A stretch of 64,000 bases of DNA from a virus: IMG/VR virus record IMGVR_UViG_3300045988_174509; one strand, written 5' to 3'. Positions 1 to 22,600 of the stretch are shown here, one piece after another. The translations under genes were made by a program, and so were the position numbers. Under the pieces are notes generated by a model that searched no databases, had not been told where the DNA came from, and was given only the letters and a program-made list of their open reading frames with translations. Each line of letters begins with the position of its first letter. Within the stretch, counting starts at the first letter, position 1.

Positions 1-470
1 ATGCCAAGGTGTACGGGAATGCCAAGGTGTCCGGTGATGCCGAGGTGTACGGTGATGCCGAGGTGTACGGGAATGCCAAGGTGTCCGGGAATGCCTGGGT
101 GTACGGGAATGCCAAGGTGTACGGGAATGCCAAGGTGTCCGGTGATGCCGAGGTGTACGGTGATGCCGAGGTGTACGGGAATGCCAAGGTGTCCGGGAAT
201 GCCTGGGTGTACGGGAATGCCAAGGTGTACGGGAATGCCAAGGTGTCCGGTGATGCCGAGGTGTACGGTGATGCCGAGGTGTACGGGAATGCCAAGGTGT
301 CCGGGAATGCCTGGGTGTACGGGAATGCCAAGGTGTCCGGTGATGCCAAGGTGTCCGGGAATGCCTGGGTGTCCGGGAATGCCTGGGTGTACGGTGATGC
401 CAAGGTGTCCGGTGATGCCAAGGTGTACGGTGATGCCAAGGTGTCCGGGAATGCCAAGGTGTACGGATGC
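1..470 (+). repeat. ~26 tandem near-identical 18-nt repeats (coding)
   Basis: Units such as atgccaaggtgtacggga, atgccaaggtgtccggtg and atgccgaggtgtacggtg repeat continuously. Confidence 0.9.
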
Positions 471-713
471 ACGATTCTGAGAACCGGGGTTACAAAAACT
501 TCAACGGATTTTGTGGTTATCGGGCCTCAAGGAAGCAGGAATTCTTTTGCTACTTACCATATTGAATCCAATACCATTTGCACTGGATGCTTCATGGGAA
601 GTCTCAATGCCTTTAGCGAAAAGGTAACTTTGGTGTATGGGGATAATGAATACAATGCCCAGTATCAAAGAGCCATTCAGGTTTTTGAAATGTATCAAAA
701 GAAGGGAAAATAA
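3..713 (+). CDS. 5'-truncated hexapeptide-repeat protein (beta-solenoid-like repeat region plus unique ~80-aa C-terminal domain); candidate tail fibre/spike
   Basis: The frame entering at nt 3 stays open to the stop at 713, directly before the next gene. It encodes ~26 tandem hexapeptides (G-[ND]-A-[KEW]-V-[YS]) from near-identical 18-nt DNA units, then a non-repetitive tail. The other two frames are also open only inside the repeats. Confidence 0.55.
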   Translation, partial: AKVYGNAKVSGDAEVYGDAEVYGNAKVSGNAWVYGNAKVYGNAKVSGDAEVYGDAEVYGNAKVSGNAWVYGNAKVYGNAKVSGDAEVYGDAEVYGNAKVSGNAWVYGNAKVSGDAKVSGNAWVSGNAWVYGDAKVSGDAKVYGDAKVSGNAKVYGCTILRTGVTKTSTDFVVIGPQGSRNSFATYHIESNTICTGCFMGSLNAFSEKVTLVYGDNEYNAQYQRAIQVFEMYQKKGK

Positions 714-2824: not shown

Positions 2825-3385
2825 GTGCCGGAGCCCATTATTCAGAAGAAGTGGACGAGACTACAAAAGCTTGCGGTGAATTTGAACCAGATGAAGACTG
2901 ATCCCATGTACGCTCAGCCTTTGCAGTCTGTTTTGGTCTCCATTAAAAATCCCTATTCGGATTTTATTTTGGCGGGACTAAAAAAGTTGAAGCTAAGAAA
3001 ATCAATTCCTCAGGCCTTTAAAAATGGGGAGCCTTGCATAGGTTGGATTTATAATAGTGGTAAAGATGGGTCACATTCTATTGTGGGTAAGTTTCTTGTG
3101 GGAGATTTTTTCAGATGTGACGTGATCTATGACTTCATGTATAATGATTTACCAAGGGTCCTCAAAGAATCTTGTCTTGACTTGAAGGGGTTGGTGGATT
3201 ATCTTCCATGCTACGCCTTGCAGGTACATAGTCCTAAGAGGTTTGCACCTGTTCATCTTTCCAGGATTGGTTTAAGTCGGCCTCCACAGTCCTGGCAGTA
3301 TTTAACCAGAGAGCAGGCCGCTATTTTATACGAGTATGAAAACATCCAAGACCCCCGATACCATTGTGAAGTCTCCGGCCATTAA
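2825..3385 (+). CDS. ASCH/PUA-like domain protein
   Basis: SIKNPYSDFILAGLKKLKLRKSIP resembles the ASCH beta-barrel core (..sIkp.y...I..G.K..E.R..). GTG start in the track. Confidence 0.4.
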   Translation: MPEPIIQKKWTRLQKLAVNLNQMKTDPMYAQPLQSVLVSIKNPYSDFILAGLKKLKLRKSIPQAFKNGEPCIGWIYNSGKDGSHSIVGKFLVGDFFRCDVIYDFMYNDLPRVLKESCLDLKGLVDYLPCYALQVHSPKRFAPVHLSRIGLSRPPQSWQYLTREQAAILYEYENIQDPRYHCEVSGH

Positions 3386-4100
3386 GCACACTCCGACACT
3401 GGCTTTGAAGTTCCAGGCCGCTTATGACTTTTTCAATGCGCGGCTATTTAGTTCGGAACTCCCGGATTGTATTATTGTATTGTGCAATAACAATAAAAGA
3501 ACCCTGGGGTATTACCATAAGGGGCAATACGTAGAGACTACCAAGGGAACCAGGCTGGATAAGATTTCTCTAAATCCCCAATGGTTTATAGAGCGTGGAA
3601 TTCGTTGCACCCTTTCCACTCTGGTTCATGAAATGTGCCATCTCTGGGCCTATAACTTCCTGACGCCGCCTCCCCGGGCCGGGTATCATTGCAGGAGGTG
3701 GGGGGCCAAAATGAAGGAGGTGGGCCTTTACCCTTCAACTACAGGGGAAGAAGGAGGAAAGGAAGTGGGACAGTCCTGCTCTCATTACATTATTAAAGGA
3801 GGCCCGTTCGATTTGGCTTGTGAAGATTTTCTTAGAGAGTCTCCCGGTTTGACCTACATTCATTCGATTCAGTTTGAAACAGGCTATGCGCCGCTGAAGA
3901 TTGCAGATTATGCAAAGGAGAACTCGAACCTGGAAGAAGCTTTCAGTACGGTTTCGCCCTATGCTTCCGGTGGTGTGAAGACCAATAAGTCAAACCGGAT
4001 AAAGTACTCCTGCCCAAATTGCAAGACTAATGTCTGGGGTAAAGAGGGCCTTTCCTTGAGATGCGGAGCTTGTGAATCACCTTTTATCATTGCTGACTAA
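3336..4100 (+). CDS. SprT-like zinc metalloprotease with C-terminal zinc ribbon
   Basis: The N-terminus has an AYDFFNARLF..L SprT-N-like pattern. An HEMCHLWAYNF HExxH motif follows and the C-terminus is a CPNCKTN...CGACESPF zinc ribbon. Confidence 0.65.
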   Translation: MKTSKTPDTIVKSPAIKHTPTLALKFQAAYDFFNARLFSSELPDCIIVLCNNNKRTLGYYHKGQYVETTKGTRLDKISLNPQWFIERGIRCTLSTLVHEMCHLWAYNFLTPPPRAGYHCRRWGAKMKEVGLYPSTTGEEGGKEVGQSCSHYIIKGGPFDLACEDFLRESPGLTYIHSIQFETGYAPLKIADYAKENSNLEEAFSTVSPYASGGVKTNKSNRIKYSCPNCKTNVWGKEGLSLRCGACESPFIIAD

Positions 4101-4714
4101 TGAGAAAAGAAGTTATCGCCATCATTCCAGCCAAGGGATTCTCTGACGCCCTGAAGCAGAAAAACCTGCAAGACTGGGGGGGGGCTCCATTGTTTTGGGA
4201 ATCCGTAAGGTACGCCAGGGCTGAGGGTGTTTTCCCGGTAGTTGTAACCCGTGATCCCCTGATTCACTTCTACGCTGAATCCCATGGGTGTGACGTAGTG
4301 GTTGAAGAAGGGGAGGGCATGATCCAGTGCATCCAGGAGTCCATGAAGCACTATCCGGCAAATCGGTACGTACTGCTTCAGCCTACCTCTCCCCTCCGCC
4401 AGCCGGGACTTCTCTCCCAGATTCTGAAAATCCCTCGCTCCTGTGTATTCACTGCGGAGCGGGTCAAAGTAGTAGGGGTTCTGGACGGGGAGGGAACAGT
4501 GTTTCAGGGGCCCAGGGAATCAGCTTCCCGCTTCCTTTGGAGGTTTGACGGGAACATGCTGACCGGGACCCGCGATTTGATAGGTCAGGGAATCCTTTTA
4601 CCGGATGACGCATATCCGGTAGAGCAAAGGCTTCCCTATACTCTCCAGATTGATTATCTGGAAGATTTAAACATTGTGAGAAAAATTTATGAAAGTATGT
4701 ATTATTGGAAATAA
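4100..4714 (+). CDS. CMP-sugar (acylneuraminate/Kdo-type) cytidylyltransferase, NeuA/KdsB family
   Basis: N-terminal AIIPAKGFSDALKQKNL matches the IIPARGGSKG.PrKNi motif. The internal LLQPTSPLRQ matches the conserved LQPTSPlR box of CMP-NeuAc/CMP-Kdo synthetases. Confidence 0.7.
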   Translation: MRKEVIAIIPAKGFSDALKQKNLQDWGGAPLFWESVRYARAEGVFPVVVTRDPLIHFYAESHGCDVVVEEGEGMIQCIQESMKHYPANRYVLLQPTSPLRQPGLLSQILKIPRSCVFTAERVKVVGVLDGEGTVFQGPRESASRFLWRFDGNMLTGTRDLIGQGILLPDDAYPVEQRLPYTLQIDYLEDLNIVRKIYESMYYWK

Positions 4715-5207
4715 GGAAAATCTTGACGAGGATTATTCTTCTCAAGTAGCTTCTGCTGACATTGTGGTTCGCATCTCCAAGATGTGCAACTATGACTCCG
4801 GGCTTGTCGGGTCCCATACCGACATCCTGTACTTGGAGCCTAACTGGCAGTGGGCTTGGTATTCGGAAAAACGCAGGCATATCCACCTGTTTAAAGACAT
4901 CCCTGTAATCATGATCAGGGAATCCTGGTGGGCCCGAGTAGGGTGCTTTCTTCTTGAGAATGGTTATGTGGAAGAAAGTCAGGTAGTAGTAATCCCGCAG
5001 GAGGTCGAATCGGCTTACCCTAATTTTTCAACCCTCGCGCTAGCAGTGGCTGATATGCACCAACGCTATCCAGGTGCGCAAATCAGTCTGGTTGCCGCTG
5101 ATGTGGGCGATGCCCGGCTGGAATTCCTGAAGGAGTCCCACCCCTTTTCCAAGGAGGTGCAGTATATAGAAGACCTTGCTGAAAAGGGAATTCTTGAAGC
5201 CCTATGA
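4689..5207 (+). CDS. Putative CstII/GT42-like (sialyl)transferase-related protein (short, divergent)
   Basis: N-terminus VCIIGNKENLDEDYSSQVASADIVVRISKMCNY aligns by eye to the CstII N-terminus VIIAGNGPSLKEIDYSRLPNDFDVFRCNQFY. The start overlaps the end of the cytidylyltransferase gene. Confidence 0.3.
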   Translation: MKVCIIGNKENLDEDYSSQVASADIVVRISKMCNYDSGLVGSHTDILYLEPNWQWAWYSEKRRHIHLFKDIPVIMIRESWWARVGCFLLENGYVEESQVVVIPQEVESAYPNFSTLALAVADMHQRYPGAQISLVAADVGDARLEFLKESHPFSKEVQYIEDLAEKGILEAL

Positions 5208-5527
5208 TTGAAGAGGCGCATTTGTTCAATGAACTGAGAGAGAGCAATCTCAATGTAAATAAGGCTTTGGTGCTTATGGCCGTAGCCGCTGGAAAGACTA
5301 CGACGACAGCCATCAGGGAGGAGTTCGGTATTCTTCCCTCCAATTCCCAGTATTGGCTTAAATCCCTGGTAGGCTTGGGGCTCCTGGTCCGCCATGTGCC
5401 TCAGCTTCCTCCTGGACAATGTAATTATTTCTGGAATTATTCATTGACGAAAAAGGGTGAGAAGGTAGTAGCCCTGCTAAAGGAGCGTCTCAGAAAAATA
5501 GCACTTGACGCGATCTCCAACTCCTGA
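5204..5527 (+). CDS. Winged-helix DNA-binding protein (MarR/TrmB-like)
   Basis: KALVLMAVAAGKTTTTAIREEFGILPSNSQYWLKSLVGLGLL reads as an HTH plus wing pattern. Confidence 0.45.
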   Translation: MIEEAHLFNELRESNLNVNKALVLMAVAAGKTTTTAIREEFGILPSNSQYWLKSLVGLGLLVRHVPQLPPGQCNYFWNYSLTKKGEKVVALLKERLRKIALDAISNS

Positions 5528-5539
5528 TACCTTTGACGC

Positions 5540-5962
5540 ATGGCTGATGATGAAAAAATTCTTGAGAACGCCAAGGCCCTCTACGGGCTTTCCGGGCAGG
5601 CGACTGCCTGGGACAAGCTGACCAAGGCCAAGCAAACTCCCTATGTCAACATTGCCCGCGGGCTGGCCGACAATAAGGATGCTATTTTAGCTGATCTTGT
5701 TTCCGACTATGCCGGATGCTTCGGGGCCTCCACCAAGACCCAGAAGATCATTCATACGGTTATCGGGATTATCCTTGGAGCCGCGGGTGCCCTTGGGCTC
5801 ATGGGCACTTCTGGTTGCGGCCACACGGTTGACGTTACGCCAGACCAGACCACTATCTGCAAGGACGGTTCCTGCCTCGTCATTGAGCAGGGCCATGTGT
5901 CCTTCAGGCAGAACGCGCCGGAGAACACCGCGCCTCCCATTATCGTACAAGATAAGAAGTAA
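5540..5962 (+). CDS. Membrane-anchored hypothetical protein
   Basis: Internal hydrophobic helix IIHTVIGIILGAAGALGLMG followed by a Cys-containing segment. Confidence 0.45.
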   Translation: MADDEKILENAKALYGLSGQATAWDKLTKAKQTPYVNIARGLADNKDAILADLVSDYAGCFGASTKTQKIIHTVIGIILGAAGALGLMGTSGCGHTVDVTPDQTTICKDGSCLVIEQGHVSFRQNAPENTAPPIIVQDKK

Positions 5963-5973
5963 TAGCTACGAAC

Positions 5974-6945
5974 ATGGCTGAAGGTACAGCATCAAGTCTC
6001 CCGCCGGAAATGCCTCCGCAGATGCCCTCTGGATTTGATGCCCCCGGATTTCCTGGGGGCATCTCTTCTACGGAGAATGAGATCAACCGTCTCTCTGTAC
6101 AGTTCCCGGAACCCGAGATTCCGGTTCCCCAGTACCATTCATCCGTGAACCAGTTCGCCGCGGCGGAGATGGTACCCGGGGAGGACTACCTGCGCCGCCC
6201 CAATTTCGGGCGCATGTTCTCCGTGGTGTATGATGTGAATGCGCAACGCGGGCCCGCCGTAAAATACACGGCGGGAATATTGATTGAAGGATCTACCATC
6301 CAGAATGTTCCGCCCGGCACTACTCCGGGAGAGCTTATTTCCATGACGCCCCGCCAGTCGGCACCGCTGGACAGCGATATAACTTGGTACCTGAATGTGG
6401 AACCCGTCCGGGATCTTTCCAAGGTGTCGGCTACAAAAAGCACTACTGCGGATTTAAGCATCCCCGTAGCCAGGATGACAAAGGGACGCAATGGATTTAT
6501 CCAGCAGTTGCATAGCGGGGCAGTATTTCTGGACGGCCTCTCTTTCGGATTTGAGGTGCAGATCAAAAGGGGTCCGGACGGGAGTCAGACCGGGATCAAG
6601 GTCCGTCCCGGAATGGTCATGCTCAACGGCTCCTATGTGGGAACCTATCCTGAGCCTAATGACACTACAGGCCAATGGCATGAGGTGGCGTTCGCCCAGG
6701 ACGGAGACGTGTATATCGCATTTACTTTCAATGACCATTCCGCCATTACCCGGGCCGCTATCGAATTTGAGCCGGGCCCTGTTGAGCCTTACTTCCTGGT
6801 AAAGGCACATCCGGAACCCGGGAAAACATTTTTCTACTCTTTCAAGCTGGCAATGCTCCGGAGCGAGCGCGTCACTCAATATATTCTTGGCACCATCCAA
6901 ATCCCGGTGGCGGGCGGAACCTTCTTCCCTTATGGTCCATCATGA
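5974..6945 (+). CDS. Hypothetical protein (323 aa), Pro/Gly-rich N-terminus
   Basis: ORF with ATGA stop/start coupling to the next gene. Confidence 0.5.
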   Translation: MAEGTASSLPPEMPPQMPSGFDAPGFPGGISSTENEINRLSVQFPEPEIPVPQYHSSVNQFAAAEMVPGEDYLRRPNFGRMFSVVYDVNAQRGPAVKYTAGILIEGSTIQNVPPGTTPGELISMTPRQSAPLDSDITWYLNVEPVRDLSKVSATKSTTADLSIPVARMTKGRNGFIQQLHSGAVFLDGLSFGFEVQIKRGPDGSQTGIKVRPGMVMLNGSYVGTYPEPNDTTGQWHEVAFAQDGDVYIAFTFNDHSAITRAAIEFEPGPVEPYFLVKAHPEPGKTFFYSFKLAMLRSERVTQYILGTIQIPVAGGTFFPYGPS

Positions 6946-7685
6946 TTAGAATTTATATTTTCACTTATGCCGGGGATCATCAGGAAGGCCTGGAATGCGT
7001 GCGCTGTGCGCGCCGGGCGTTGCCCGGGTCCCTTATCACAGTGGTGGATGACAAGCACCACCCGTGCCCGGACAATCCATGTATGCAGTTCATTGACGCC
7101 GGGGCTACGGGCTATGCTCAAAGCTCTTTTCCCCGCAATGGGAACCTCAATGGCCGCGACTGTGTTTTAGGCGTAGTCTCAACGCTGGCGAGGAATGCAA
7201 GGAAAAACGACATTGTGGTGAAGCTGGATTCCGATACCTGCCTTCTGGATGGAGGGTGGATTAAACGGATGCAGAGGAACCATTTGGCCCTGCATGCCTC
7301 GGGCTTCAAGATTCCTTCGGGTCATCTTAGACGGCAGATGTACGGTCTTTGCTACGCCTTGAAAGGTGAAGCACTGACGGACATATACAACCGCCTCCTG
7401 TCTGATGCCCATTTGATCCCGGAGAATGCGCCGGAAGACATAGCTATTTCCGAATGCGCCTTGGAGAATTTCCAACCCAGCTCCATTCAGCTGGACGAAC
7501 CCTGGAGTAAGGAGTGCCCTTCTTCCAAGTGGACTGCCTGGAACTGGTGGAGCTGTAGAGTATCCCTGGAAAAATATAAGGATTTTTCCGTAGTCACCTT
7601 TGGCTCACCGATGCCCACCAACCTGAGCCGTAGTCTCCGTGCCCTGAAGATGAGGGAGTTAAGACTTTGTAAATTTTCCTCTTGA
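6942..7685 (+). CDS. Putative GT-A fold glycosyltransferase
   Basis: N-terminal beta-strand/helix pattern IYIFTYAGD..LECVRCARRAL resembles the GT2 N-terminus. DxD-like KLDSDT is present. Confidence 0.35.
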   Translation: MIRIYIFTYAGDHQEGLECVRCARRALPGSLITVVDDKHHPCPDNPCMQFIDAGATGYAQSSFPRNGNLNGRDCVLGVVSTLARNARKNDIVVKLDSDTCLLDGGWIKRMQRNHLALHASGFKIPSGHLRRQMYGLCYALKGEALTDIYNRLLSDAHLIPENAPEDIAISECALENFQPSSIQLDEPWSKECPSSKWTAWNWWSCRVSLEKYKDFSVVTFGSPMPTNLSRSLRALKMRELRLCKFSS

Positions 7686-7715
7686 CTTTTCCACGCCAGA
7701 GTTGAAACTACGGGC

Positions 7716-8216
7716 ATGTTTGAAGACGATGTATTAACATATCCGCCCGATGTGGACTCATGGAAGAATCGGGCTGAAGAGCTACTTGAACTCTTGTCTA
7801 GACTTCCATTGGAAGTAGAGAAAGCTAATAGGAGGTATGGAAGAGATTCTATCAGTTTGTTATTGCGTACTGGAATTCTTATAACTACTAGAATACAAGG
7901 TACTAAGAACCTTACTTATTTTTTGTGCAGTACTGATAAAACAGCTCAACTGCTTTCTCAGCTTACCAAGGAAGTGGCAAAGATGAAGGCGGAAGAGGAG
8001 AAGCTGAAAAAAGAAATAGTGCTTGGAGAAAAGCTTAATCAGGAGCTTAGAGAATCTGAAACCCTCCAAGAGATTTATAATTTCATGAACTATCTCAAGA
8101 CTTCCGGCTACCCTGTTGTAGGGGTCTCCCTTACCGAGAGAGAGAAAGAAAGCTGGAAAAACTCAGCTATGAATGGGGCTGGACTACTCGCATTAACTTT
8201 GGTAGAAGTGTTTTAA
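7716..8216 (+). CDS. Coiled-coil hypothetical protein
   Basis: A weak TTGACT promoter-like element lies at 7683-7688. K/E-rich heptad region. Confidence 0.45.
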   Translation: MFEDDVLTYPPDVDSWKNRAEELLELLSRLPLEVEKANRRYGRDSISLLLRTGILITTRIQGTKNLTYFLCSTDKTAQLLSQLTKEVAKMKAEEEKLKKEIVLGEKLNQELRESETLQEIYNFMNYLKTSGYPVVGVSLTEREKESWKNSAMNGAGLLALTLVEVF

Positions 8217-8298
8217 AGAACACTGGTTACGTAGGTATTTGCATTACCCTGCAAGGAGCCCTCATGCTTGAAAATTTTTTAAAGACGCCAGAAAATAA

Positions 8299-9003
8299 AT
8301 GAAAACAAATATCCCGCATTACTGCATTGTAGTGGCCACGGTCAACCAGGACGGCCTTTTCCCGGACAAGACTCCGACTCTTTTTCATTATACACTGAAC
8401 TACCTGAAGAATGTCGGTGTGAAAAAAGAGGACATCCTGGTTCTTGGAGACGATGTTTCCTGCATTGCCTACGCGTCCTCCCTGGGACTTGCCTGCTCTC
8501 AGGTGGAATCCAAAGACATTATCAAGAAGTGTATTGAATCCGCGAGTCAGAGACTCAAGGAATCAGGGAATCCCTTTTCCCTGGTCCTTCTTCAACTTGA
8601 CAATCCTGCCCGGGAGCACGATCTGCTGGAGCAGGTCATCATTACCTCCAAGGCCAAGCCGGAGCAGGATATTGAGGTAGCCCATAAAAATCTTTATTCC
8701 GACGGCGAGCATGCTGATTGGAGGGCCCGTACGAGCGTGTCCCTGTACGCTGTCTGGTACACTCAGGACCTGGATGAATACTACAAAACTCAAGACGAAA
8801 TCATTGGCTTCCCAGCTCCTGCTTATTATGTATTTCAAAATACGTTTTGCGGAAGCTCCTACGTCCAGTCCGAGTACCATTTCAACAAGGCAGTGACGGA
8901 TACGATTGTGGAAGAAGCCTACAAAATGTCCGTCGTCACCGCCCTGGGGGATGAAAAGTATCCCCGAGTTGTTTTGATTGACACGGTTGAAAAATCCAAC
9001 TAA
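8299..9003 (+). CDS. Hypothetical protein, possible nucleotide-sugar transferase fold
   Basis: N-terminal CIVVATVNQDG..L pattern is reminiscent of the GT-A N-terminus (VIIPtYNe). Confidence 0.3.
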   Translation: MKTNIPHYCIVVATVNQDGLFPDKTPTLFHYTLNYLKNVGVKKEDILVLGDDVSCIAYASSLGLACSQVESKDIIKKCIESASQRLKESGNPFSLVLLQLDNPAREHDLLEQVIITSKAKPEQDIEVAHKNLYSDGEHADWRARTSVSLYAVWYTQDLDEYYKTQDEIIGFPAPAYYVFQNTFCGSSYVQSEYHFNKAVTDTIVEEAYKMSVVTALGDEKYPRVVLIDTVEKSN

Positions 9004-9011
9004 GCTCTCTT

Positions 9012-9536
9012 ATGCTTTTTCCTGTATCGCTATCAAATTTAACCTGGGACTGCAAGCAGAACGGGTGGGTGGATTCCGGTTTGGTTTCCAGCTACGCCCA
9101 GCAGTATCCCGAAGTTCCTTTCCCCACAGCGGTTTCTTCCCTCCCCCCGGTTGTTGTTGATCCCATGTCTTCCAACCTTCTGGGGTTGACGGTATATAAT
9201 CCGGATTTTGTATTCAATGACTTGGGGAAGAGTGTCTCCATTACTGCGGGAACCTACAAGCTCAATTCATTAGGGGTTCGGGGAGAAAAGCTTGCCGTGG
9301 CTCCCGGAATCACGGCGGCAGGGACTCTGGGTCAAGGGAACACCTTGAGCACAGTCTATAAGAACGTGGACATTTCTTCCGCGTTCTTCATGCGGGACTC
9401 CTCTTCCGTCAATCCGGGTCCGGGCACTACCCGGGATTTATCCCTGTATATCAGGCTTACTGAAAACTCTTCCGGCCAGCGCGTGCTGGAACTTCCACCC
9501 CTGATCTGCCGAGTTCTTTTTTCTGCCGAATTTTAA
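9012..9536 (+). CDS. Hypothetical beta-rich protein (174 aa)
   Basis: ORF with S/T/G-rich composition. Confidence 0.4.
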   Translation: MLFPVSLSNLTWDCKQNGWVDSGLVSSYAQQYPEVPFPTAVSSLPPVVVDPMSSNLLGLTVYNPDFVFNDLGKSVSITAGTYKLNSLGVRGEKLAVAPGITAAGTLGQGNTLSTVYKNVDISSAFFMRDSSSVNPGPGTTRDLSLYIRLTENSSGQRVLELPPLICRVLFSAEF

Positions 9537-9920: not shown

Positions 9921-10379
9921 ATGCCACTCGCCTATCAAGAACCTCATTTCTTTTTGTGCCTGGATGAAGTTTCTCGTCATAAGAAAATTCTCCAGAATGT
10001 TTTCCCGTTCTTGGAAAAAACTTTAAAAGAATGTCCAGACCTTCAATGGGGACAGATTGCATTTTGCAGGACCACGAAAATTCTTCCCTTCAGCAGTGCC
10101 ATCGAAGCCATGCGCATAGGCGGGGCGGCCCGCTTCGTAGCCAAGGATGGCACTGCTACTCCCTGGCATGTGCTGGTGGTTACGCCGTATGATGAAACAG
10201 ACCCGGAGTTGGGGATGGAATTTTCTTTTCACCATTTGGTCCCCCAGCTTCACCCTACCGAAGATTCTACCCAGATTATGGGAGTCCCCTATGTTTTAGA
10301 GGAGTCCCCCGTAACTATCCCAACCGACCTGATTGCTGGCTTTGGCTGGCAAGTATGGCTACCAAAAAATGAAAAGTAA
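9921..10379 (+). CDS. Hypothetical protein (152 aa)
   Basis: ORF. Confidence 0.4.
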   Translation: MPLAYQEPHFFLCLDEVSRHKKILQNVFPFLEKTLKECPDLQWGQIAFCRTTKILPFSSAIEAMRIGGAARFVAKDGTATPWHVLVVTPYDETDPELGMEFSFHHLVPQLHPTEDSTQIMGVPYVLEESPVTIPTDLIAGFGWQVWLPKNEK

Positions 10380-11085
10380 AATTATTGAAATACAACGACT
10401 TGTAGGAGTAACGCCTGACGGTGTTATTGGAGACAAAACTCTGAACGCTATTCTGGAAAAATTGCGCCCGGCCAGCTCTCAGGGAGAAACAGCCCCTGAT
10501 CAGGTGCGTTTCGACATGATGGCAACAATGTTGAACTTTGAGGATGACCGGATTACCGGGCCAGCTTCCCTCCGAGTGATGCGCTTGCCGGAAGGTGACG
10601 GAGGCGGGACCTACGAGATTGCTGGAATCTGTGATGGCATTGAGCCCAAGGTATTTAATTCCATCAAGGTTGAATTGGAAGCCGGGAACCGGGACAAAGC
10701 CTGGGACATGTGCATTGACTACGTGGAAAAGAAAACCCGAAACGGCCAAGTCTGGTCCCCAGAAAACCTCGCTATTGAATTCTTCTTGCGGGACATCATC
10801 TTCAATATGGGTGATGGCGGGTGCGTCAACGTGATGCAGAGGACTATCAATTATTATGGAGAGACCAAAGTAGTTGTGGACGGAGCCTGGGGGCCTAAAA
10901 CCAAGAAGGCTTGGGAAGAGCTTCTTTCTATTATCGTTCCTGTTAATCTTCTTTTGGCTCTTGCGCGATGCCGAGACCAACGCTACAAGGCTATCGCTAC
11001 TGCGAATTCCAAGAAGGAGAAATTCCTAGCTGGCTGGTATTCCCGTACTTTAAAAGCAAAAACTTACGCAAAGAAGCTACTGTAG
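10369..11085 (+). CDS. Endolysin-like: PG_binding_1 domain plus GH108-like/PG_binding_3 module
   Basis: IEIQRLVGVTPDGVIGDKTLNAI fits PG_binding_1 and EGDGGGTYEIAGI is GH108-like. NMGDGGCVNVMQRTINYYG..VDGAWGPKTKKAW....GWYSRT fits PG_binding_3. ATG at 10369 preferred over the TTG at 10333. Confidence 0.6.
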   Translation: MKSKIIEIQRLVGVTPDGVIGDKTLNAILEKLRPASSQGETAPDQVRFDMMATMLNFEDDRITGPASLRVMRLPEGDGGGTYEIAGICDGIEPKVFNSIKVELEAGNRDKAWDMCIDYVEKKTRNGQVWSPENLAIEFFLRDIIFNMGDGGCVNVMQRTINYYGETKVVVDGAWGPKTKKAWEELLSIIVPVNLLLALARCRDQRYKAIATANSKKEKFLAGWYSRTLKAKTYAKKLL

Positions 11086-16591: not shown

Positions 16592-16628
16592 GCCTACCAT
16601 GCCTCGGTGTGGTAGGCTTTCTTGTATT
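16592..16628 (+). terminator. Intrinsic terminator
   Basis: Stem gcctacca/tggtaggc plus tttcttgtatt. Confidence 0.5.
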
Positions 16629-16675
16629 CGGAGCGCAACACAGCTCCAACCTGTTTACATACCTCATATTACATT

Positions 16676-19600
16676 ATGGCTATTGATTTTTCAACCTTGG
16701 GACCCATCCAGCCTGGGCTGGATGCGCGGCAGGAAAGCCAAGCACGAGCCCGTACCAATTTCGCCCAGCGTCAGGAAGACCGCGGCAGGACAAAAGCTGT
16801 AGAGCCTTTGAAAGCGATGGCGGATTTTGATTCCCTTCTTGCCAAGGAGCTTGGCTCTCTGGAAAAAACCCAGAAGACTGAAGCCCGGCAGGAGAAAACC
16901 GAAGCCCGGGCTGAGCGAAGCGAGGCTCGTGCCGAGCGGAGTGCCGAACGTGCGGAAACCTCCTTTGAGCAGGGACAGAAGAAATGGGACTGGGCACTGA
17001 ATGACCGTGCCCGGGAAGAAGCCAACCGCGATCTTGCCAAGATTACCAAGAGTTCTACCTCAGGCATTAACGCTCAAAGCATTGAGGAGCTGGAGGATTG
17101 GGTGAAAACCCCGGAGACCGAGCTCTATGATCTGAAGACGGCAAGCTCCGATGAGAATGCACTGGGGATTATTGCCAGCCGCCTGGGGGTTGAAAAAATT
17201 GAAGGAGCTCTCCCGACCCCGACCACCAGTGAGGATGTTGAAACTCCTCCCTACTTCCTTTCCCGGCAGGGTCTGGCCCTGCGGCCCGATGGTTCCTACA
17301 TTGTCACCAACAAATTCATTGATTCGGTAGCCCGGAGCAAAGCCGATTCTTCCAAGCTTGCCTCTGCCGTTTCCAAGCAGTTGAATGCTGGCGTCAAAGC
17401 CTCCAACCGTGATGGCCTGTCCTCTACTCCCATTACCGCCACGGCTACAGAAGAAGAAATTAAGGAGATGATCGACACTATTCGTAGTGGTGACAAGAAG
17501 GTCCATGCGGCAGTAAAAGCTATCTATGATAAGCACATACCAGAAGACAAGAAGACTCAAGCGTCTGAAGCTCAAACAGAGACTGAAACCCCTGAAGCCC
17601 AGGAAGGAAAGACCCCGGTGGGGGAGCCTGGAAGTGGCGGTTCCTCAGCCGATGAAACCCCTGGTAATTTTACCTCTACGGTTTTAGATGAAGCTGAGTG
17701 GCTTGCCACGAACCCGGCCAAGTTTACCGAGCTGACCCAGCAATATCTGAACTCCCTGGTAGAGCAGGGCATGAACGCCCCGGAAGTCCAGCGGGCCGAG
17801 CTTGCAGGCCAGCGGGCGGTAGCCAGGGAGAACTATATCCGTGGCGTTGAGACTCTGCTGGAGCGCACCTTCCAGGATGTGGACCCAAAGGAAGCAGGGG
17901 AAGCTCTCCGAAATGAGGCCCGCGTGGCTGAGAAAGTGCTTGACATGTACGGCGGCGCACCCGCAGAGGCTCTGGCCCAGATTGAACGCAGGACCGAGGA
18001 GCTGGCCAAGGCACACCCCGGCAATGAAAGCCTAAGAAATCAGGACAAGGCCAAGGCTATTTACGAATACCTTGACTCCGTGATTCCCGGATTCAATGCT
18101 TCAGGGGCAGAGGCCGACGCGCTTCAGCAAATCGTGGAGGAGAATATCGTCGGGGCTACGAAAACCCCCAGCCTTAACGATGCCGCGACGGCGGCCATGC
18201 GCCACTACCGCAGTAGCCTGGGGCAGGTATCCGACATGACGGGCACCGTGATGGAAGGAGCCACGCGCTTCAACATCCCCGGGCTCCGCTATGAAAACAA
18301 ATCCGATGACGAAGCTACCCGGAATCCCCTGGAAAAAATGACCTGGGAACCCGGGAAGGGGGGCTGGAAGTTTGGCTTCAAGCGCAGTAACGGGAGCATG
18401 GAGGATTCTTTTTCCATCAGCTATGAAGGCCTGCGCTCCTACATGGCCGAGCACAAGCTCAACCAGCAGGACGCACTGAACTCCATTGCCTTCCCCACTA
18501 CCCTGGGGGATGTGGCCTACGCCAAGGACGGGCTCCTCTTTGCCAGGAACCCCTACACCGGGGAGGTGGAAGAGAATGCCACGCTGGCGATGAACCCGAC
18601 GGCTCTGTATGATAACTCCCTGTACCAGAAAAGCCTGGAGGGCCTGCGCTCTTCGGGAATGAGCGATGAAGAGATCGCGGCTGTTGACAAGAAGTATCAG
18701 GATGCCAAGGCGCGATCCGCCGCTGAGACCGTACAGGGCCTGCTCCAGACCTATTCTGAAATGCAGAGCATGGCGGAACTGACTGGCAGTGAAACGCTTG
18801 GAAAGATTCTGGAACCTGATTCCAGCGTGGACTTCCGCATTTTCCATGCCCGCATGAAGCGGGACAGGATGAGCGACACTTTTATCCTGGAGCAATGGAA
18901 CGACAAGGAAGAGCAATGGGACAGACAGGTCCAGCGTGTCATCCAGGGAACCCAGCGCAAGGCCGTTGACATGGGGGTCACTGCCGGGCTGGCGATTGCC
19001 CAGCAACTCAATGGGGTTCTGGGCCCCAGGGATTCCGCCGCGACTCTGAGCAACCAATGGAAGATTGTAAATGAATCGCGCGAAGCCGCAACCCGGGTAA
19101 CGCAAAGCAACCTGTTTACCGAATGGGGTACCGAGCTGGCATTCCTGGCTGTCCAAATGGCGGGCACCGGAGCGGCGGGTATTGCTGGCCGCACCGCAGG
19201 GGAGGCTCTTGCTACCCAGGGAATCCGCCGGGTAGCCGCGGGGATGGCCCTGCGCTCCCAGGCCGCCGCTACAGTAGCCCGCCCCGGCATTGCGCAAAGT
19301 GCGGAAGTTGCTTTCTCCCGCACGATGGAGGGGATTGTCCATGGGGCCACGCGCTCCTGGGGTGCCACTGCCGGGACCCAGGCGGCTATCTTTTCCCAGG
19401 TAGCCCCCTATGCCTATGGTGATATTTTCTCCACCCAGCTGGACCGGGCTATCAAGCACGCGGAAACCCTGCCACAAGATCAACGCGGCGCATACCTCAG
19501 TGATGCCCAGAACCTTGCCAACCTTCGCGCCACGGCGGGTGCCGTCATCGTAGGGATGGCCTCTATGGCAATCAACTCCCGCGCTGGTATGAACACATTC

Positions 19601-22600
19601 ATTACCAAGAGCGTAGGAGGTAAGACCTGGGTGCCTGAAAGCATTAAGAAATTCCGGCAGGGGAGCTCCACGATTGCCAGCAAGGTGACGGGGAACACCA
19701 CGCGGGAAAGGCTTTCCAGTTTTGGCGCGCTCTCTACCAAGGAGAAAGTGCTCTACATGGGCAACAAGCTCTACCAGGGCGGGAAGCTGGCCGTGGAAGG
19801 CGCGGCTGAAGAACTGACGGATGAATTTTCCGAATGGCTCTGGACCTCGCTGGTGAAGGATGGCTACATTGCCGAGGACCAGATCGGGACTACTGCCGAG
19901 ATTGCCGCCGCCGCCGTCAAGATTGCCGTGCTTGGTGCCATCGGTGAAGTCACGGCATCCCGGCTTCCGGGAGCCAGGGAATCCGTGCCTCCGGAAATCC
20001 TGGCACAGGCACAGCGGGCGGATGTAGGCATCAAGCCCGAAGAAACCCTGCATGCGCTCAATGCAATCTCCATAGACATGCGGACGGAACTGGAAACCAA
20101 GCAGGGTACGCTGGCCCAGACCATCGCCACTGCGGGGGACAGCGCAGTAGAAGTGCTCAATACCAACCTCTCCGAGCCAGTGAAAGCTGAATACGTGGAG
20201 GGCAACAAAGCCGTAGCCGCCAAGGCCGGGGAGATCGTGGACAACATCAGCAATGCTCCGGTTTATGTCAACGAGCTGGCCGCTGAGGTGGGAGGGGAAG
20301 CCCTGACTCCCGGAGTCCTGGAAGCATGGACTCAAAACAGCATCGTCCTCGGAGCCCAGAACGTAACCCTGCTGAGAAGCTTTGCCCAGAATCTCAAGGA
20401 AGAGATAGCCACGGCGAGCCCGGAAGGGAGGGCCCGGCTGGTAGAGAACGCCCTCTCCAACATCACGGAGCGGATGATCAACCCCACCCCGGAGAAGAAG
20501 GAAATCATGCGAAGCATGGTGGACCAGATTGCGGAGATTTACAACGAGGCTCCGGTAGAGCTTACGCAAGTGGATGACTCTCTTAACTTTATGCCCACTG
20601 GCAATGAGACGGTGGACGTAATTGGGGAAGTAGCCAGCATGGCTGGACCTGCCGCGGTGACTACTGGAGTAGCTACCGAAGCTCCGGCTCCTCCCATTCA
20701 GATTCCCCAGCTTCCCGGAGCTTCTGCCCTGGATACAAATGCCGAGGTAGAAGTATTGGGAACCCGGATGCCTGTGCGAGACATCGCCCCCGTCAAGCCG
20801 GAGCCCCTGGAATCTCCTACGGCTCCGCCTCTTGCCGAGCTGACTGATGCCTCCCTTTCCGGTCCCCTTGATTCCGCCAGCCCGGAAGCCAGGGAGTGGG
20901 CAACCCAGGTAATCACTGGCCTGGAATCCTTCGACCCGGAAACCGCGCAATGGATTACCAAGGGGCGGGAAGCCACGACCTTGACGGATGCCGAGGTTGC
21001 CCGCATGGTGACGCTGAACCAGCTTACCGGGCCTGCGGCCCCCCTTACTGTAGATGATACAGGAAGAACGCTTGTCACAGAACCTAATGCTATCCGGTAT
21101 AACAATCGCGCGCCTGCCGAAATCGCAGGTGAGCTGAACGATTACCAAAGTCAAGTTCTTTCTTTCATGCCGGAGAAATCCGGAGACGGTCTTGCCCTGG
21201 TGGATCGGTTCCTCAGCACCCAGGAAATCACGCCCCAGGAGCGCAGAGTCCTTGAGTCCGTGAGGGAGTATCTGAGAAAAAACAATCTGGGATTCGGGGT
21301 TTCACGGATTCATACCGACATGATTGAAAGCTGGAATGCTCCGGCCCTGGTTGACTTTGCCGACCCGGACTCTCCGCTCATGGTTGTCAACACTTTATTT
21401 GCCCCGGTTGCCGGGGACTTCAAAAACACCTTCATCCATGAGGCCGTGCATTTGGTGGACCAGCACCAGCGGATGACCAACCCTGACTACGGGAACCAGC
21501 TTCGCAGTATGAAGCTGGCTCTCCGGGAAAACTGGAACGAGCTGGTGGGCATCCTGGAAAAGGAAAGCCAACAGGCCCCGGATAATGAGAGCAGGCTGGC
21601 GATAGAAACAGCGATCGAAGACATGGCCTATGGCCTTGACATCAGTGAGGCCCAGGCCGTGGCGAACAACGACAATGAATTCGCCTCCGTGCTTCTGAGC
21701 AACCCGGTGTTCCGCCATCTTGCAAGTCAGATGAAAGAAGGAGGAGAATCAATTACATTTGAAGACCTTTCCTCCCCGGCTACCCTGGCGGCCCTGGCGG
21801 AGTCAGTAACCCCTCCGTCTTCTTTCCTTGGCCGGGTATTTGAAAGCCTGAAGAATGTCTTCAATAAAATCCTTGGCCGCTACAAGAACCTGGAAAAGGA
21901 TAACTTCTCCCTGCTGAAAGACATGGGCGAAGAGTGGACGGCATGGAAGGAGCGGCATTCCGAGGCCGCGCGCAAGCTGGATGAGGCGGCACCCTTGGAT
22001 GGGAGCCGCTGGCTGATACCGGATGATCCCACAGCCATGAAGAACACCGGGTATCAAGATGCCGGATTGATCCTTCGCACGCAGGGCCAGCAAATCCCCA
22101 CTCCTACCGCAGACACAGGAACCGCCTTCTCCCCTACCCGCTACGGATTCATGGGGGAAGTGGGAGGCAACCTGGGTGAGAACTGGTTTAACCTCACCAT
22201 GGCTGGGGCGCGGCAAGCCGCTACATGGTTCAACATGGGCGCGGCCAAGTTCGGCTATCAGAAAGCGATCAACAAGCTGGACTCCCAGCAGGTGCCTGTC
22301 TTTACTGAGCAGGATTCCCTGCGGGTGCGGGAGCAGATGACGGCCCAGGACATGGGCCAGCGTTATGTCATCCAGCAGGTGCACCAGATTGCCAACTGGG
22401 TCAATGCCATGAAGCTCAAGCCTGAAGAGCAGAAGTCCCTGGCTATTGCTATCCGGGACTACGTGGGCAACACGGACAACCTTGCTCGGCCCAAGGAAAT
22501 CCAGCGCATTTATGCGGACACCCAGACCCAGCTTCAGCAGGCCGCCGTGGACCGGGACCGGGCCGTGGCCGCCGCCAAGGAGGGGGTTGTCAGGACCAAG

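Follow-up and report, generated by a model that had tools for sequence, protein, structure and literature searches.

A NeuA-type synthetase and a minimal sialyltransferase-like protein in a candidate two-layer glycosylation system of a probable Akkermansia phage

The window analyzed here, a 64,000-nt stretch of viral DNA (IMG/VR record IMGVR_UViG_3300045988_174509), encodes a NeuA-type cytidylyltransferase whose gene overlaps that of a very short sialyltransferase-like protein. The identities of these enzymes and their coupling can be stated with good confidence. The pair is an optional extra on a different, older unit, missed in a preliminary description of this DNA, which consists of a tail-fibre-like gene and a GT-A glycosyltransferase. 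Together they may form a two-layer, late-expressed glycosylation system of an Akkermansia phage, directed at its own fibre or virion; the probability of this whole proposal, virion target included, is put at about 40%. The features concerned are as follows.

4100–4714, + strand: NeuA-type CMP-nonulosonate (sialic-acid family) cytidylyltransferase, short form, 204 aa (PF02348, family profile, motifs)
4689–5207, + strand: minimal sialyltransferase-like transferase, GT29/GT42-like fold, no Pfam family, 172 aa (AF2, profiles, fusions)
5204–5962, + strand: two intervening genes, a MarR-like wHTH (5204–5527) and a 140-aa protein with one internal membrane helix (5540–5962)
5974–6945, + strand: chimeric tail-fibre-like protein, candidate acceptor or receptor-binding partner of GT-A, 323 aa (BLAST, tblastn)
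6942–7685, + strand: GT-A fold glycosyltransferase, GT8-like (retaining type), no Pfam family, 247 aa (AF2, Foldseek, DxD)
8299–9003, + strand: distant cytidylyltransferase-like paralogue, doubtful member of the system, 234 aa (hhalign)

The phage and its gene set

The phage origin of the DNA is confirmed by ORFs for a VapE primase, PolA, a helicase, a lysin and a 3407-aa protein, and by relatives that are Akkermansia phages. The phage is probably lytic, with the gut mucus bacterium Akkermansia as its host. The window yielded neither an integrase nor a recombinase, so the lysogenic-conversion role once suggested fits this phage poorly. The reported absence of sugar synthases stands: among window ORFs of 246 aa or more on the evident coding strand, none matches the NeuB, NeuC or KdsA families. 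For the ~5 kb upstream of the window start, seen in a 99% identical relative, the check comprised inspecting the ORFs and searching the largest unexplained one against the PDB. Three of the four original gene calls hold, the exception being 8299–9003 as a glycosyltransferase. The enzymes do not form one contiguous cassette, as four other genes intervene (the wHTH, the membrane protein, the 323-aa tail-fibre-like gene and a 166-aa ORF).

The synthetase

ORF 4100–4714 was first read as a NeuA/KdsB-family cytidylyltransferase, and rightly so. It has the motifs IIPAKG...KN and LLQPTSPLR, and the proposed check by profile search against Pfam PF02348 (CTP_transf_3) gave 24.3 bits, above the cutoff of 22.6; all 13 close homologues, except one that is truncated, carry the same domain. 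A family profile built without any NeuA-named sequence was run against the PDB and matched CMP-Neu5Ac synthetases full-length (N. meningitidis 1eyr, E 3.9e-17; mouse CMAS, 8.5e-14), with KdsB matches weaker (2e-11) and in the N-terminal half only. The nucleotide- and sugar-binding motifs of NeuA are kept: P10, K12, S15, K21, N22, Q94-P-T-S97-P98-x-R100 (Q94 nearly so) and D150-G151 are invariant in the family, and D185 is near-invariant. Compared with the two NeuA enzymes, the protein is ~25 residues shorter, and its IPA(R/K)G motif has Lys instead of the customary Arg; in RxQD, its relatives have Q and the window copy E.

The activated sugar could alternatively be Kdo, with a KdsB-like CMP-Kdo synthetase serving a Kdo transferase. 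PF02348 spans KdsB as well as NeuA, KdsB matches nearly equal NeuA matches in single-sequence searches, and no nonulosonate synthase was found among those same window ORFs (246 aa or longer, evident coding strand). Every Gram-negative host makes Kdo, Akkermansia necessarily for its LPS, so the missing synthase would be explained without scavenging. Kdo is nevertheless unlikely. Only CMP-Neu5Ac synthetases match the profile from end to end, through the C-terminal half that binds the sugar, KdsB being ~1e6-fold weaker, and of the named relatives the closest are synthetases for Neu5Ac and legionaminic acid. The partner protein resembles users of CMP-nonulosonates only, unlike the known Kdo transferases (GT30, GT73, GT99, GT107), which have other folds or belong to other families (PMC5811610).

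The minimal transferase and its coupling to the synthetase

The CstII-like assignment of the short protein that follows (4689–5207) is likewise upheld. Its AF2 model (pLDDT 87.5) shares the GT-A variant-2 fold of GT29 (animal, viral) and GT42 (Campylobacter CstII/Cst-I) enzymes over 140 of 172 residues, and its viral fold matches are GT29 enzymes. The best nine matches of a broad family profile to PDB sequences are all sialyltransferases; the tenth, MbnC, is weak (E 0.84) and is not one. An hhalign comparison with the L-motifs of ST3Gal-I and CstII gave a probability of 81–82%, and 13 of 46 family members weakly match Pfam GT29. N8, R28, G41 and E/D156 are conserved in 46/46 members and H151 in 39/46. 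Besides the N-terminal CMP-binding L-motif, detectable by profile, the likeness to GT29/GT42 includes a conserved His-x4-Glu ~20 residues before the C-terminus and the teaming with a CMP-sugar synthetase. His151 is likely the catalytic base, its equivalence to the GT29 catalytic His being taken from motif spacing rather than superposition.

There are also clear contrasts. GT29/GT42 enzymes are 260–400 aa long, whereas this protein is ~170 aa, with 10–18% identity to them and no motif III region, membrane anchor or stem; it scores under the Pfam GT29 cutoff, a GT42 profile search gave no match, and its family is often fused to its own synthetase. Maf flagellin glycosyltransferases (DUF115/MptE-like; 5mu5) are ~600 aa with extra domains, and no sequence-level match to them was found in this analysis. 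The family is small and previously undescribed, and occurs almost only in Akkermansia and its phages; within the reach of one genome scan, it was found only in Akkermansiaceae/Verrucomicrobiales and their phages.

That the 172-aa protein is no glycosyltransferase at all, and instead a nucleotide-binding pyrophosphokinase/SteA-like protein or an SGNH esterase as in bifunctional NeuA, is very improbable. In E. coli K1 and group B streptococci, NeuA unites synthetase and esterase in one fusion protein, and NCBI names one truncated member of the family an SGNH/GDSL hydrolase. Against this stand the sialyltransferase-only top profile matches, the weak matches to Pfam GT29 and the GT29 fold matches, compared with TM 0.28 and probability 0.11 for an SGNH esterase. 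The GDS nucleophile position reads G-N-K, with the Asn invariant, and the domain occurs fused with glycosyltransferases.

The synthetase and transferase genes overlap by 23–26 nt, an arrangement kept in all relatives, across four genomic contexts, and in 41 of 149 representative relatives the two are fused in one protein, in both domain orders. Some fusions additionally bear GT10, GT31 or GT32 domains (fucosyl- or galactosyltransferase), and one lies within an Akkermansia chromosomal locus rich in GT6, GT10, GT11 and GT31 genes. The pairing is therefore functional, and the proposed combination of a CMP-nonulosonate-type synthetase with a CstII/GT29-like transferase is strengthened by both fusions and overlap; the added domains and the chromosomal locus point to a role in glycan building.

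The fibre-like gene and GT-A

Of the two GT-A-like glycosyltransferases claimed in the preliminary description, that at 6942–7685 is supported by its fold and an invariant DxD, and that at 8299–9003 is not. The AF2 model of the former (pLDDT 90, pTM 0.90) has Foldseek PDB matches to Skp1 alpha-GalT, glycogenin, LgtC, UGGT and GlyE (E 1e-7 to 4e-6), the closest folds being GT8-type retaining transferases (E about 1e-7, TM 0.56–0.60). K94, D96, D98 and T99 are invariant in the family, D96-x-D98 being the DxD. None of 35 homologues has a Pfam domain; the one from phage Chambord aligns with an hhalign E of 3e-113. GT-A lies directly 3' of the fibre-like gene in 7/7 contexts examined, with a 4-nt overlap wherever coordinates were read (the window, prophage L001 and Chambord), and this unit is also found in Akkermansia phages without the synthetase-transferase pair.

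The fibre-like protein has a lineage-specific N-terminal part and a C-terminal 135 aa (nt 6538–6945) common to 594–738-aa Akkermansia prophage proteins; by BLAST, aa 189–323 match the C-termini of proteins of 738 aa in L001, 594 aa in L005 and 714 aa in L031. Searches by tblastn found matches in phages DTMo-2021a, Chambord and Chantilly. L034 has the N-terminal part alone, so that the partner of GT-A there lacks the shared C-terminal domain. The product matched nothing in Pfam, PHROG or the PDB, and has no obvious Ser/Thr-rich acceptor region.

Genomic settings

L001-type prophages carry the synthetase and transferase genes between GT-A and tape measure, leaving hardly any intergenic DNA; in Chambord, otherwise similar, the tape measure follows GT-A directly. 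Among three diverged 68–72 kb lineages, GT-A is kept in all and the pair in two. Such retention, with no integrase found in the window, argues for selection during lytic growth. Terminator-like sites show no excess around the genes, and promoter-like sites (23 vs. 14.2 ± 3.7 expected) do not delimit a separate unit. In L031-type prophages (L031–L033), the fibre and GT-A genes adjoin the integrase, a classical site for conversion genes. Of 14 genes compared in the L005 island (L005/L006; 20 kb of the L005 prophage), only the four of this system are kept, a hint that the cell itself may profit.

Hypermodification of phage DNA with a sugar acid, for which nothing speaks beyond the general fact of phage DNA glycosylation and the preliminary description's own suggestion, is the least probable reading. 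No base-modifying or nucleotide-metabolism genes were found nearby or elsewhere in the window, the genes recur in chromosomal glycan loci and in prophages whose replication modules are unrelated, and we know of no sialyltransferase-fold enzyme that acts on DNA.

Proposed mechanism and target

In the scheme proposed, donor sugar and acceptor are putative, as are the sequence of the two reactions and the advantage gained by the phage. A first layer, common to many Akkermansia phages, would consist of a hexose-type sugar attached by GT-A from a host UDP-sugar. In an optional second layer, the synthetase would make a CMP-sugar from CTP and a nonulosonic acid that the phage itself does not produce, Neu5Ac or a relative of the sialic-acid family being the likeliest. 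The transferase, translationally coupled to the synthetase, would then move this acid to the first-layer sugar, or directly to Ser/Thr as with Maf enzymes. The target would be a fibre or virion protein of the phage itself, which would be modified in the cytoplasm ahead of assembly to give a virion with an acidic, mucin-like cap. A virion target and late expression are suggested by the tie of GT-A to the fibre-like gene and by the place of the L001-type pair before the tape-measure gene. The chromosomal relatives are presumably builders of cell-surface glycans, which counts against a virion target, as does the lack of an evident Ser/Thr-rich stretch in the fibre-like protein.

The capsid of mycobacteriophage Che8 is glycosylated by the phage's own transferases (Freeman 2023, as cited in PMC13445384). 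Che8 and other mycobacteriophages likewise have glycosyltransferases among their structural genes and modify virion proteins in the cytoplasm, a step only inferred here; they add neutral sugars with GT2/GT-A enzymes, and neither a CMP-sugar synthetase nor a sialyltransferase-like enzyme takes part. In favor of sugar supply, A. muciniphila releases Neu5Ac from mucin without consuming it (PMC10017367). A tested strain fed azido-sialic acid did not display it (PMC7757161, data not shown there), so uptake of free sialic acid is only putative.

The same enzymes might instead act on the host envelope (lipid-linked intermediates of LOS, LPS, capsule or protein glycans, at the cytoplasmic face), capping the glycan recognized by the fibre's C-terminal domain and so masking the receptor. 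This would mean superinfection exclusion in lysogens and fewer progeny lost on debris or vesicles in lytic infection, possibly with host-like (mucin-like) surface mimicry as a side effect. The gene set is the one with which mucosal bacteria decorate LOS: an LgtC-like GT8 (LgtC is among the top fold matches of GT-A), a CstII/GT29-like transferase and a NeuA-like synthetase that has no accompanying synthase. Haemophilus influenzae and Neisseria gonorrhoeae sialylate LOS by scavenging, using SiaB or host CMP-Neu5Ac, Lic3A/Lst and LgtC, with a synthetase but no sialic-acid synthase, and they too live on sialylated mucosa; their genes are chromosomal and act on LOS, whereas those here are phage-borne, in late structural operons, with only a candidate acceptor. 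Glycan-building GT6, GT10, GT11 and GT31 enzymes are fusion partners or neighbors of the chromosomal relatives, and fibre tip and GT-A travel together across unrelated phages, as expected if GT-A alters the tip's receptor. Integrase adjacency in L031–L033, the four genes of the L005/L006 island, and L034, where GT-A persists though the shared tip domain is absent, favor the envelope and speak against a virion target.

Several observations weigh the other way. The window phage has no integrase or recombinase that could be found, yet the genes are kept there and in diverged sisters, embedded and translationally coupled in late structural operons with no terminator-like excess and a mild, non-delimiting promoter-like one. 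Remodeling an existing envelope in the course of a single lytic cycle is slow, genes for a flippase, polyprenol transferase or membrane transferase are lacking, and the tested A. muciniphila strain had no surface azido-sialic acid (PMC7757161). Serotype-converting phages (P22/SfV gtrABC, epsilon15) also link surface-glycan-altering genes to a receptor-binding protein or integrase, but GtrA/GtrB are missing here, along with a flippase and membrane transferase, as is any detected integrase in the window phage. An envelope target is somewhat less probable than the phage's own fibre or virion, which is preferred.

ORF 8299–9003 and the intervening genes

No evidence for a glycosyltransferase was found in ORF 8299–9003. 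Its sole detectable relationship, a weak one, is to the synthetase family (hhalign E 8.9e-5, probability 60%); its LLQLDNPAR aligns with LLQPTSPLR, and K12 and K21-N22 (the N-terminal Lys and the Lys-Asn signature) are not kept. Judged from its sequence, it is probably a degenerate synthetase-like paralogue, inactive or of other function. It is found in the 68–72 kb phage lineages, including L034, where the synthetase and transferase were not seen, and has no homologue in the prophages. Nothing found ties the wHTH and membrane-helix genes to glycosylation. The former has weak matches to Pfam MarR_2 and HxlR, and the latter a hydrophobic stretch, IIHTVIGIILGAAGALGLMGTSGC. Homologues of both occur in L008 and L034, with the wHTH gene placed differently in L008.

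Phage, host, and gene arrangement

The window covers most of a tailed phage genome, and near-identical contigs are 64–70 kb long. Among 50,697 GenBank phages searched, DNA and protein matches were to Akkermansia phages only; those at the DNA level were stretches of about 90 nt within the fibre-like gene, and a megablast search of the window DNA against GenBank phages found none. Because all of these matches are to Akkermansia phages, and because prophages in Akkermansia massiliensis and Akkermansia sp. chromosomes contain homologues of window genes, the host is taken to be Akkermansia. No ORF of 246 aa or longer on the evident coding strand matched an integrase, recombinase, or transposase family, and the phage is probably virulent. 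The features referred to below are:

9–713 (+): beta-solenoid repeat protein, running past the window start
3336–4100 (+): SprT-like zinc metalloprotease whose C-terminal tail is Cys-rich and zinc-ribbon-like
4100–4714 (+): predicted CMP-nonulosonate synthetase
4689–5207 (+): 172-aa sialyltransferase-like protein
5540–5962 (+): 140-aa protein, one internal hydrophobic helix
5974–6945 (+): 323-aa putative tail-fibre-like protein
6942–7685 (+): predicted GT-A-fold glycosyltransferase
8299–9003 (+): ORF weakly related to cytidylyltransferases
10333–11085: peptidoglycan-binding lysin
16622–26845 (+): 3407-aa ORF
39.8–50 kb: VapE-type primase, family A DNA polymerase, helicase, and PD-(D/E)XK nuclease

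A short NeuA-type synthetase

The product of 4100–4714 carries the IIPAKG and QPTSPLR motifs just as quoted in the preliminary description, and it passes the PF02348 profile narrowly (24.3 bits, curated cutoff 22.6); the fused relatives scanned score 35.9–52.8 bits. Both the IPA(R/K)GxS...KN nucleotide-binding motif and the QPTSPLR motif are found, with P10, K12, S15, K21, N22, S97, P98, and R100 invariant across the family and Q94, P95, and T96 nearly so. Single-sequence searches cannot tell NeuA from KdsB. A family profile built without any NeuA-named sequence matched CMP-Neu5Ac synthetases in the PDB from end to end (N. meningitidis, E = 3.9e-17; mouse, 8.5e-14), whereas KdsB was matched at 2e-11 or weaker and over positions 2–121 only, the N-terminal nucleotide-binding half. 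The full-length match, the weaker half-length one, and the invariant motifs together classify the protein, at the level of sequence, as a predicted short synthetase of the NeuA type, and make it improbable that the sugar is Kdo instead of a nonulosonate, despite the partial likeness to KdsB. The NCBIfam equivalog cutoffs for PseF and KdsB were not reached, so no particular nonulosonate can be assigned.

There are 13 clusters of close homologues, and the domain is also found in many fusion proteins. A more distant cytidylyltransferase (39% identity) in another locus (L007, 3016–6912) adjoins a dUTPase and a 602-aa protein with a GT31-galactosyltransferase domain, a different pairing of a synthetase with a transferase. 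In the window, the gene directly upstream is the SprT-like one, which has one base (4100) in common with the synthetase gene and belongs to a PHROG family without an assigned function.

A minimal sialyltransferase-like family

The 172-aa protein encoded at 4689–5207 has no match in Pfam, NCBIfam, or PHROG. A word-indexed search found only four close relatives, and an exhaustive profile search 152 representative ones. Its predicted fold is that of the GT-A variant-2 sialyltransferases, although the fold search also returns SteA, MptE-type HPPK, thiamine pyrophosphokinase, Maf (8.5), and Cst-I (7.3). When a broad profile of 46 relative domains was searched against PDB sequences, only sialyltransferases headed the list. 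Positions 3–51 of this profile align to residues 100–150 of ST3Gal-I, the region of sialylmotif L (E = 0.0048 against the whole PDB; hhalign probability 82%), and CstII chains match over their N-terminal 81–85 residues only (E = 0.04–0.09; hhalign probability 81%). The N-terminal parts of the ST3Gal-I and CstII sequences used in hhalign match the PDB-search alignments. A narrower family profile gave only spurious matches to designed leucine-rich repeats, so the broad one was needed.

The preliminary description had called this a short CstII-like protein, and sialyltransferases, CstII included, top the profile list; the Pfam CST-I profile matches neither the window protein nor any of the 46 family members. 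Weak matches to Pfam GT29 (PF00777) were obtained for 13 of the 46, with a best E of 0.001 and a top score of 18.3 bits where the cutoff is 23; the window's own protein has none.

Asn8, Arg28, and Gly41 are invariant in the family, and His151 is present in 39 of 46 members. A conserved T-T...A...G-D pattern resembles sialylmotif S, although no program aligned the two, and motif III has no counterpart in the family, there being just some 12 residues between the G-D strand and His151. An acidic residue (Glu/Asp156), five positions after the histidine, is found in all 46, and the distance to the C-terminus, some 20 residues, is like that in ST3Gal-I. In GT29 enzymes, sialylmotif VS holds the catalytic His, followed four residues on by Glu; judging from motif spacing, His151 and its acidic partner may be a form of this motif. 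Fold, profile matches, and motifs thus suggest that the protein works like a sialyltransferase, assigned to neither GT29 nor GT42.

A role other than transfer is highly improbable. The pyrophosphokinases among the fold matches would be one source for such a reading, and an NCBI name another: a truncated 140-aa family member (in the cluster of L001 10581–11093, from one type of Akkermansia prophage) is called an "SGNH/GDSL hydrolase family protein". The 172-aa protein has neither the GDS nucleophile block nor the SGNH fold, and both the esterase and the pyrophosphokinase readings were set aside. Since fold and motifs contradict it, the name is probably a mis-annotation, and one that could spread.

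Coupling and fusion of the pair

The synthetase and transferase genes overlap by 26 nt in the window and by 23–26 nt in every relative. In 41 of 149 representatives the two domains occur in one polypeptide, in either order, and some fusions also include a GT10 fucosyltransferase or GT32 and GT31 domains. Gene overlap and natural fusion (a "Rosetta stone" pattern) are strong indications of a pair that builds glycans, one partner producing the CMP-sugar and the other using it. In a genome scan the fused type was found almost only in Akkermansia, Akkermansiaceae, and Verrucomicrobiales assemblies, a taxonomic picture biased toward close relatives by the narrow alignment used as query.

One chromosomal example, on a contig from an A. 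muciniphila metagenome-assembled genome (CANQLV010000013.1; L010, 261–12941), is a row of giant multi-domain glycosyltransferases, in order:

GT4-like
GT31 + methyltransferase + GT11
unknown + GT6
GT10 fucosyltransferase + cytidylyltransferase + mini-sialyltransferase (1075 aa)
CgtA-like
GT10 + unknown (969 aa)

The row calls to mind the mammalian synthesis of blood-group, Lewis, and ganglioside glycans, and has the look of a locus with which Akkermansia would build host-like glycans (ABH, Lewis, sialylated).

The GT-A protein and its fibre-like partner

Two GT-A-like glycosyltransferases had been proposed downstream of the pair. For 6942–7685 this appears sound, though at the level of structure: searches against Pfam (including Glyco_transf_8), NCBIfam, and PHROG gave no match, nor did a family profile against the PDB at E up to 10, and matches came from the fold search alone. 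The model (pLDDT 90) is nearest in Foldseek to Skp1 alpha-galactosyltransferase, glycogenin, LgtC, UGGT, and GlyE, with GT8 members (E = 1e-7 to 4e-6, TM 0.5–0.6) interspersed with retaining GT77 and GT24 enzymes and identities to the fold matches of 9–16%. There are 35 homologues, and both aspartates of the DxD motif (D96 and D98) are invariant in 26 sequences. The protein is thus modelled as a GT-A fold nearest to GT8-type retaining enzymes, without sequence-level membership of GT8. The second candidate, 8299–9003, did not hold up: it has just a weak relation to the cytidylyltransferase family and lacks the catalytic Lys residues. It is not a demonstrated glycosyltransferase, and may lie outside the glycosylation system; it is also present in L034, one of two diverged 68–72 kb sister phage lineages.

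In every context the GT-A gene directly follows a gene akin to that for the 323-aa protein, often with a 4-nt overlap. The C-terminal 135 aa of the latter are common to proteins of 594–738 aa in three prophage-type loci (L001, L005, and L031) and in the GenBank phages Chambord, Chantilly, and DTMo-2021a, while the GT-A partner in L034 has its N-terminal part. Tail fibres and receptor-binding proteins are usually built in this way, with an N-terminus particular to the lineage and a C-terminus that is shared horizontally. The 323-aa protein has no relationship in Pfam, PHROG, or the PDB, and its putative tail-fibre-like role is proposed from gene position and domain sharing. Candidate glycosylation sites in it are Tyr288 and a conserved G-[TS]-[FY] tail at the C-terminus. 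The adjoining 140-aa protein, whose hydrophobic helix ends in a lipobox-like TSGC, is kept beside the fibre-like gene in both sister lineages (L008 and L034) and could be spanin-like or an exclusion protein.

An add-on to a mobile unit

The synthetase and transferase genes always occur together, and in phages always with the GT-A gene, but not conversely. Chambord, Chantilly, and the DTMo-2021a/L031 type have the fibre-like gene and GT-A only, and tblastn with synthetase and transferase against GenBank phages found no match for either; no pair was seen in L034. All four genes are present in the window phage, in its 50%-identical sister L008, and, in a different order, in the L001-type prophages. 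In the last, the pair lies between GT-A and a tape-measure gene with almost no intergenic space; the gene upstream of the synthetase there, tried as a counterpart of the SprT-like gene, did not match it and proved to be GT-A. Because GT-A is also found without the pair, and the pair in phages never without GT-A, the pair is best described as an add-on to GT-A.

A coiled-coil tape-measure-like protein (656–838 aa) and a small GYF_2-domain protein are encoded at L001 11119–14129 and L031 1342–3796. Their genes differ in position relative to fibre and GT-A, and the unit therefore moves as a block. An island of about 12 kb lies between radC and dnaX in L005 (1500–14100) and L006. Of its 14 genes in L005, only those for a fibre-like protein (594 aa), GT-A, synthetase, and mini-transferase matched the compared phage DNA; the island may be what is left of a prophage, retained for these four.

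In the window, terminator-like sites are at chance level (13 vs. 13.6) and promoter-like ones mildly over it (23 vs. 14.2 ± 3.7), and neither pattern marks the glycosylation genes as a separate unit. The GC profile is a mosaic with no clear island boundary.

Sugar source and acceptor

In line with the preliminary description, no sugar-synthesis gene was found in the window: among its evident coding-strand ORFs of 246 aa or more, none matched the NeuB, NeuC, or KdsA families. The roughly 5 kb upstream of the window start, known from a 99% identical relative (L026), hold a 697-aa ORF the size of the L008 tail gene, small ORFs, and a 375-aa repeat protein. Both mucin and milk glycans are sources from which A. 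muciniphila frees Neu5Ac that it does not then consume (PMC10017367), so the host would be surrounded by free sialic acid. Azido-sialic acid was not seen on the A. muciniphila strain tested (PMC7757161), and the literature gave no evidence for Akkermansia making or importing nonulosonates.

The enzyme steps are well supported, and the enzymes would tentatively modify the phage's own fibre or another virion protein (probability about 0.4). This target is favoured because translational coupling links GT-A to the fibre-like gene even where the phage backbones are unrelated, because the pair is embedded in late structural operons and has no signals that are its own, because diverged, apparently virulent lineages keep it, and because there are precedents in mycobacteriophage virion glycosylation (cited in PMC13445384) and in the fold-related Maf enzymes, which transfer nonulosonate to flagellin.

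The main alternative, only a little less probable, is that the enzymes cap a host surface glycan recognised by the fibre, for which the LOS-like toolkit, the chromosomal relatives, the position adjoining an integrase in L031, and the four-gene island would speak; the coupling to fibre genes and the retention by apparently virulent phages are the points that favour the virion. Within 3336–9536 there are no Pfam families of a Gtr cassette (GtrA flippase, GtrB polyprenol-phosphate transferase, membrane GtrC), and the sole membrane-helix protein is the 140-aa one. Modification of phage DNA by these genes is scarcely credible and was set aside.

In the fullest version of the virion reading, which is unlikely as a whole, a minimal new sialyltransferase family lets Akkermansia phages put sialic acid, or a nonulosonate close to it, on their receptor-binding fibre as a cap, the sugar being one that the mucin-degrading host frees and leaves unconsumed. 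If true, it would be the first sialylated bacteriophage virion. With a mucin-like coat the phage could be retained in mucus, escape host immunity or glycosidases, or bait Akkermansia's own mucin-binding surface, and the same enzyme family would also build host-like glycans on Akkermansia through synthetase-transferase fusions.

Akkermansia, a keystone bacterium of mucus, is also a candidate probiotic, and to our knowledge almost nothing is known of the way in which glycans are presented to the host by the bacterium or its phages. If active, the pair would let phages and some Akkermansia strains cap proteins or surface glycans with a sialic-acid-type sugar taken from host mucus, which bears on mucus retention of phage, immune recognition through sialic-acid receptors, and phage resistance; a soluble sialyltransferase of 170 aa with a matched synthetase would also suit glyco-engineering. 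Phage virion glycosylation and phage seroconversion are both already known, databases already hold viral neuA-type genes and GT29-labelled genes of uncultured phages, and bacterial GT29 relatives have been described (PMC5811610). New here are the minimal 170-aa sialyltransferase-like family, absent from the catalogues; the way it is naturally coupled with, and fused to, a matching synthetase; its limitation to Akkermansiaceae and their phages, as far as a single genome scan reached; and, in phages whose host specialises in mucin, the addition of the pair to a GT-A linked to a fibre-like gene.

Other features

The 3407-aa ORF has no Pfam match, high GC (0.55–0.59), and a strongly positive AT skew; the virion RNA polymerase of N4-like phages is about the same size, a likeness of size alone. 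The repeat protein at 9–713 has YdcK repeats and is bactofilin-like, with PHROG matches to tail fibre and baseplate families; an ORF at 1–480 in another frame is a shadow of its DNA repeats. Upstream of the window start, the 375-aa protein (L026, 3981–5108) is built from a 20-aa leucine-rich-like repeat (GGSLDLRNAKAIPRGFNPTV) in roughly nine copies.
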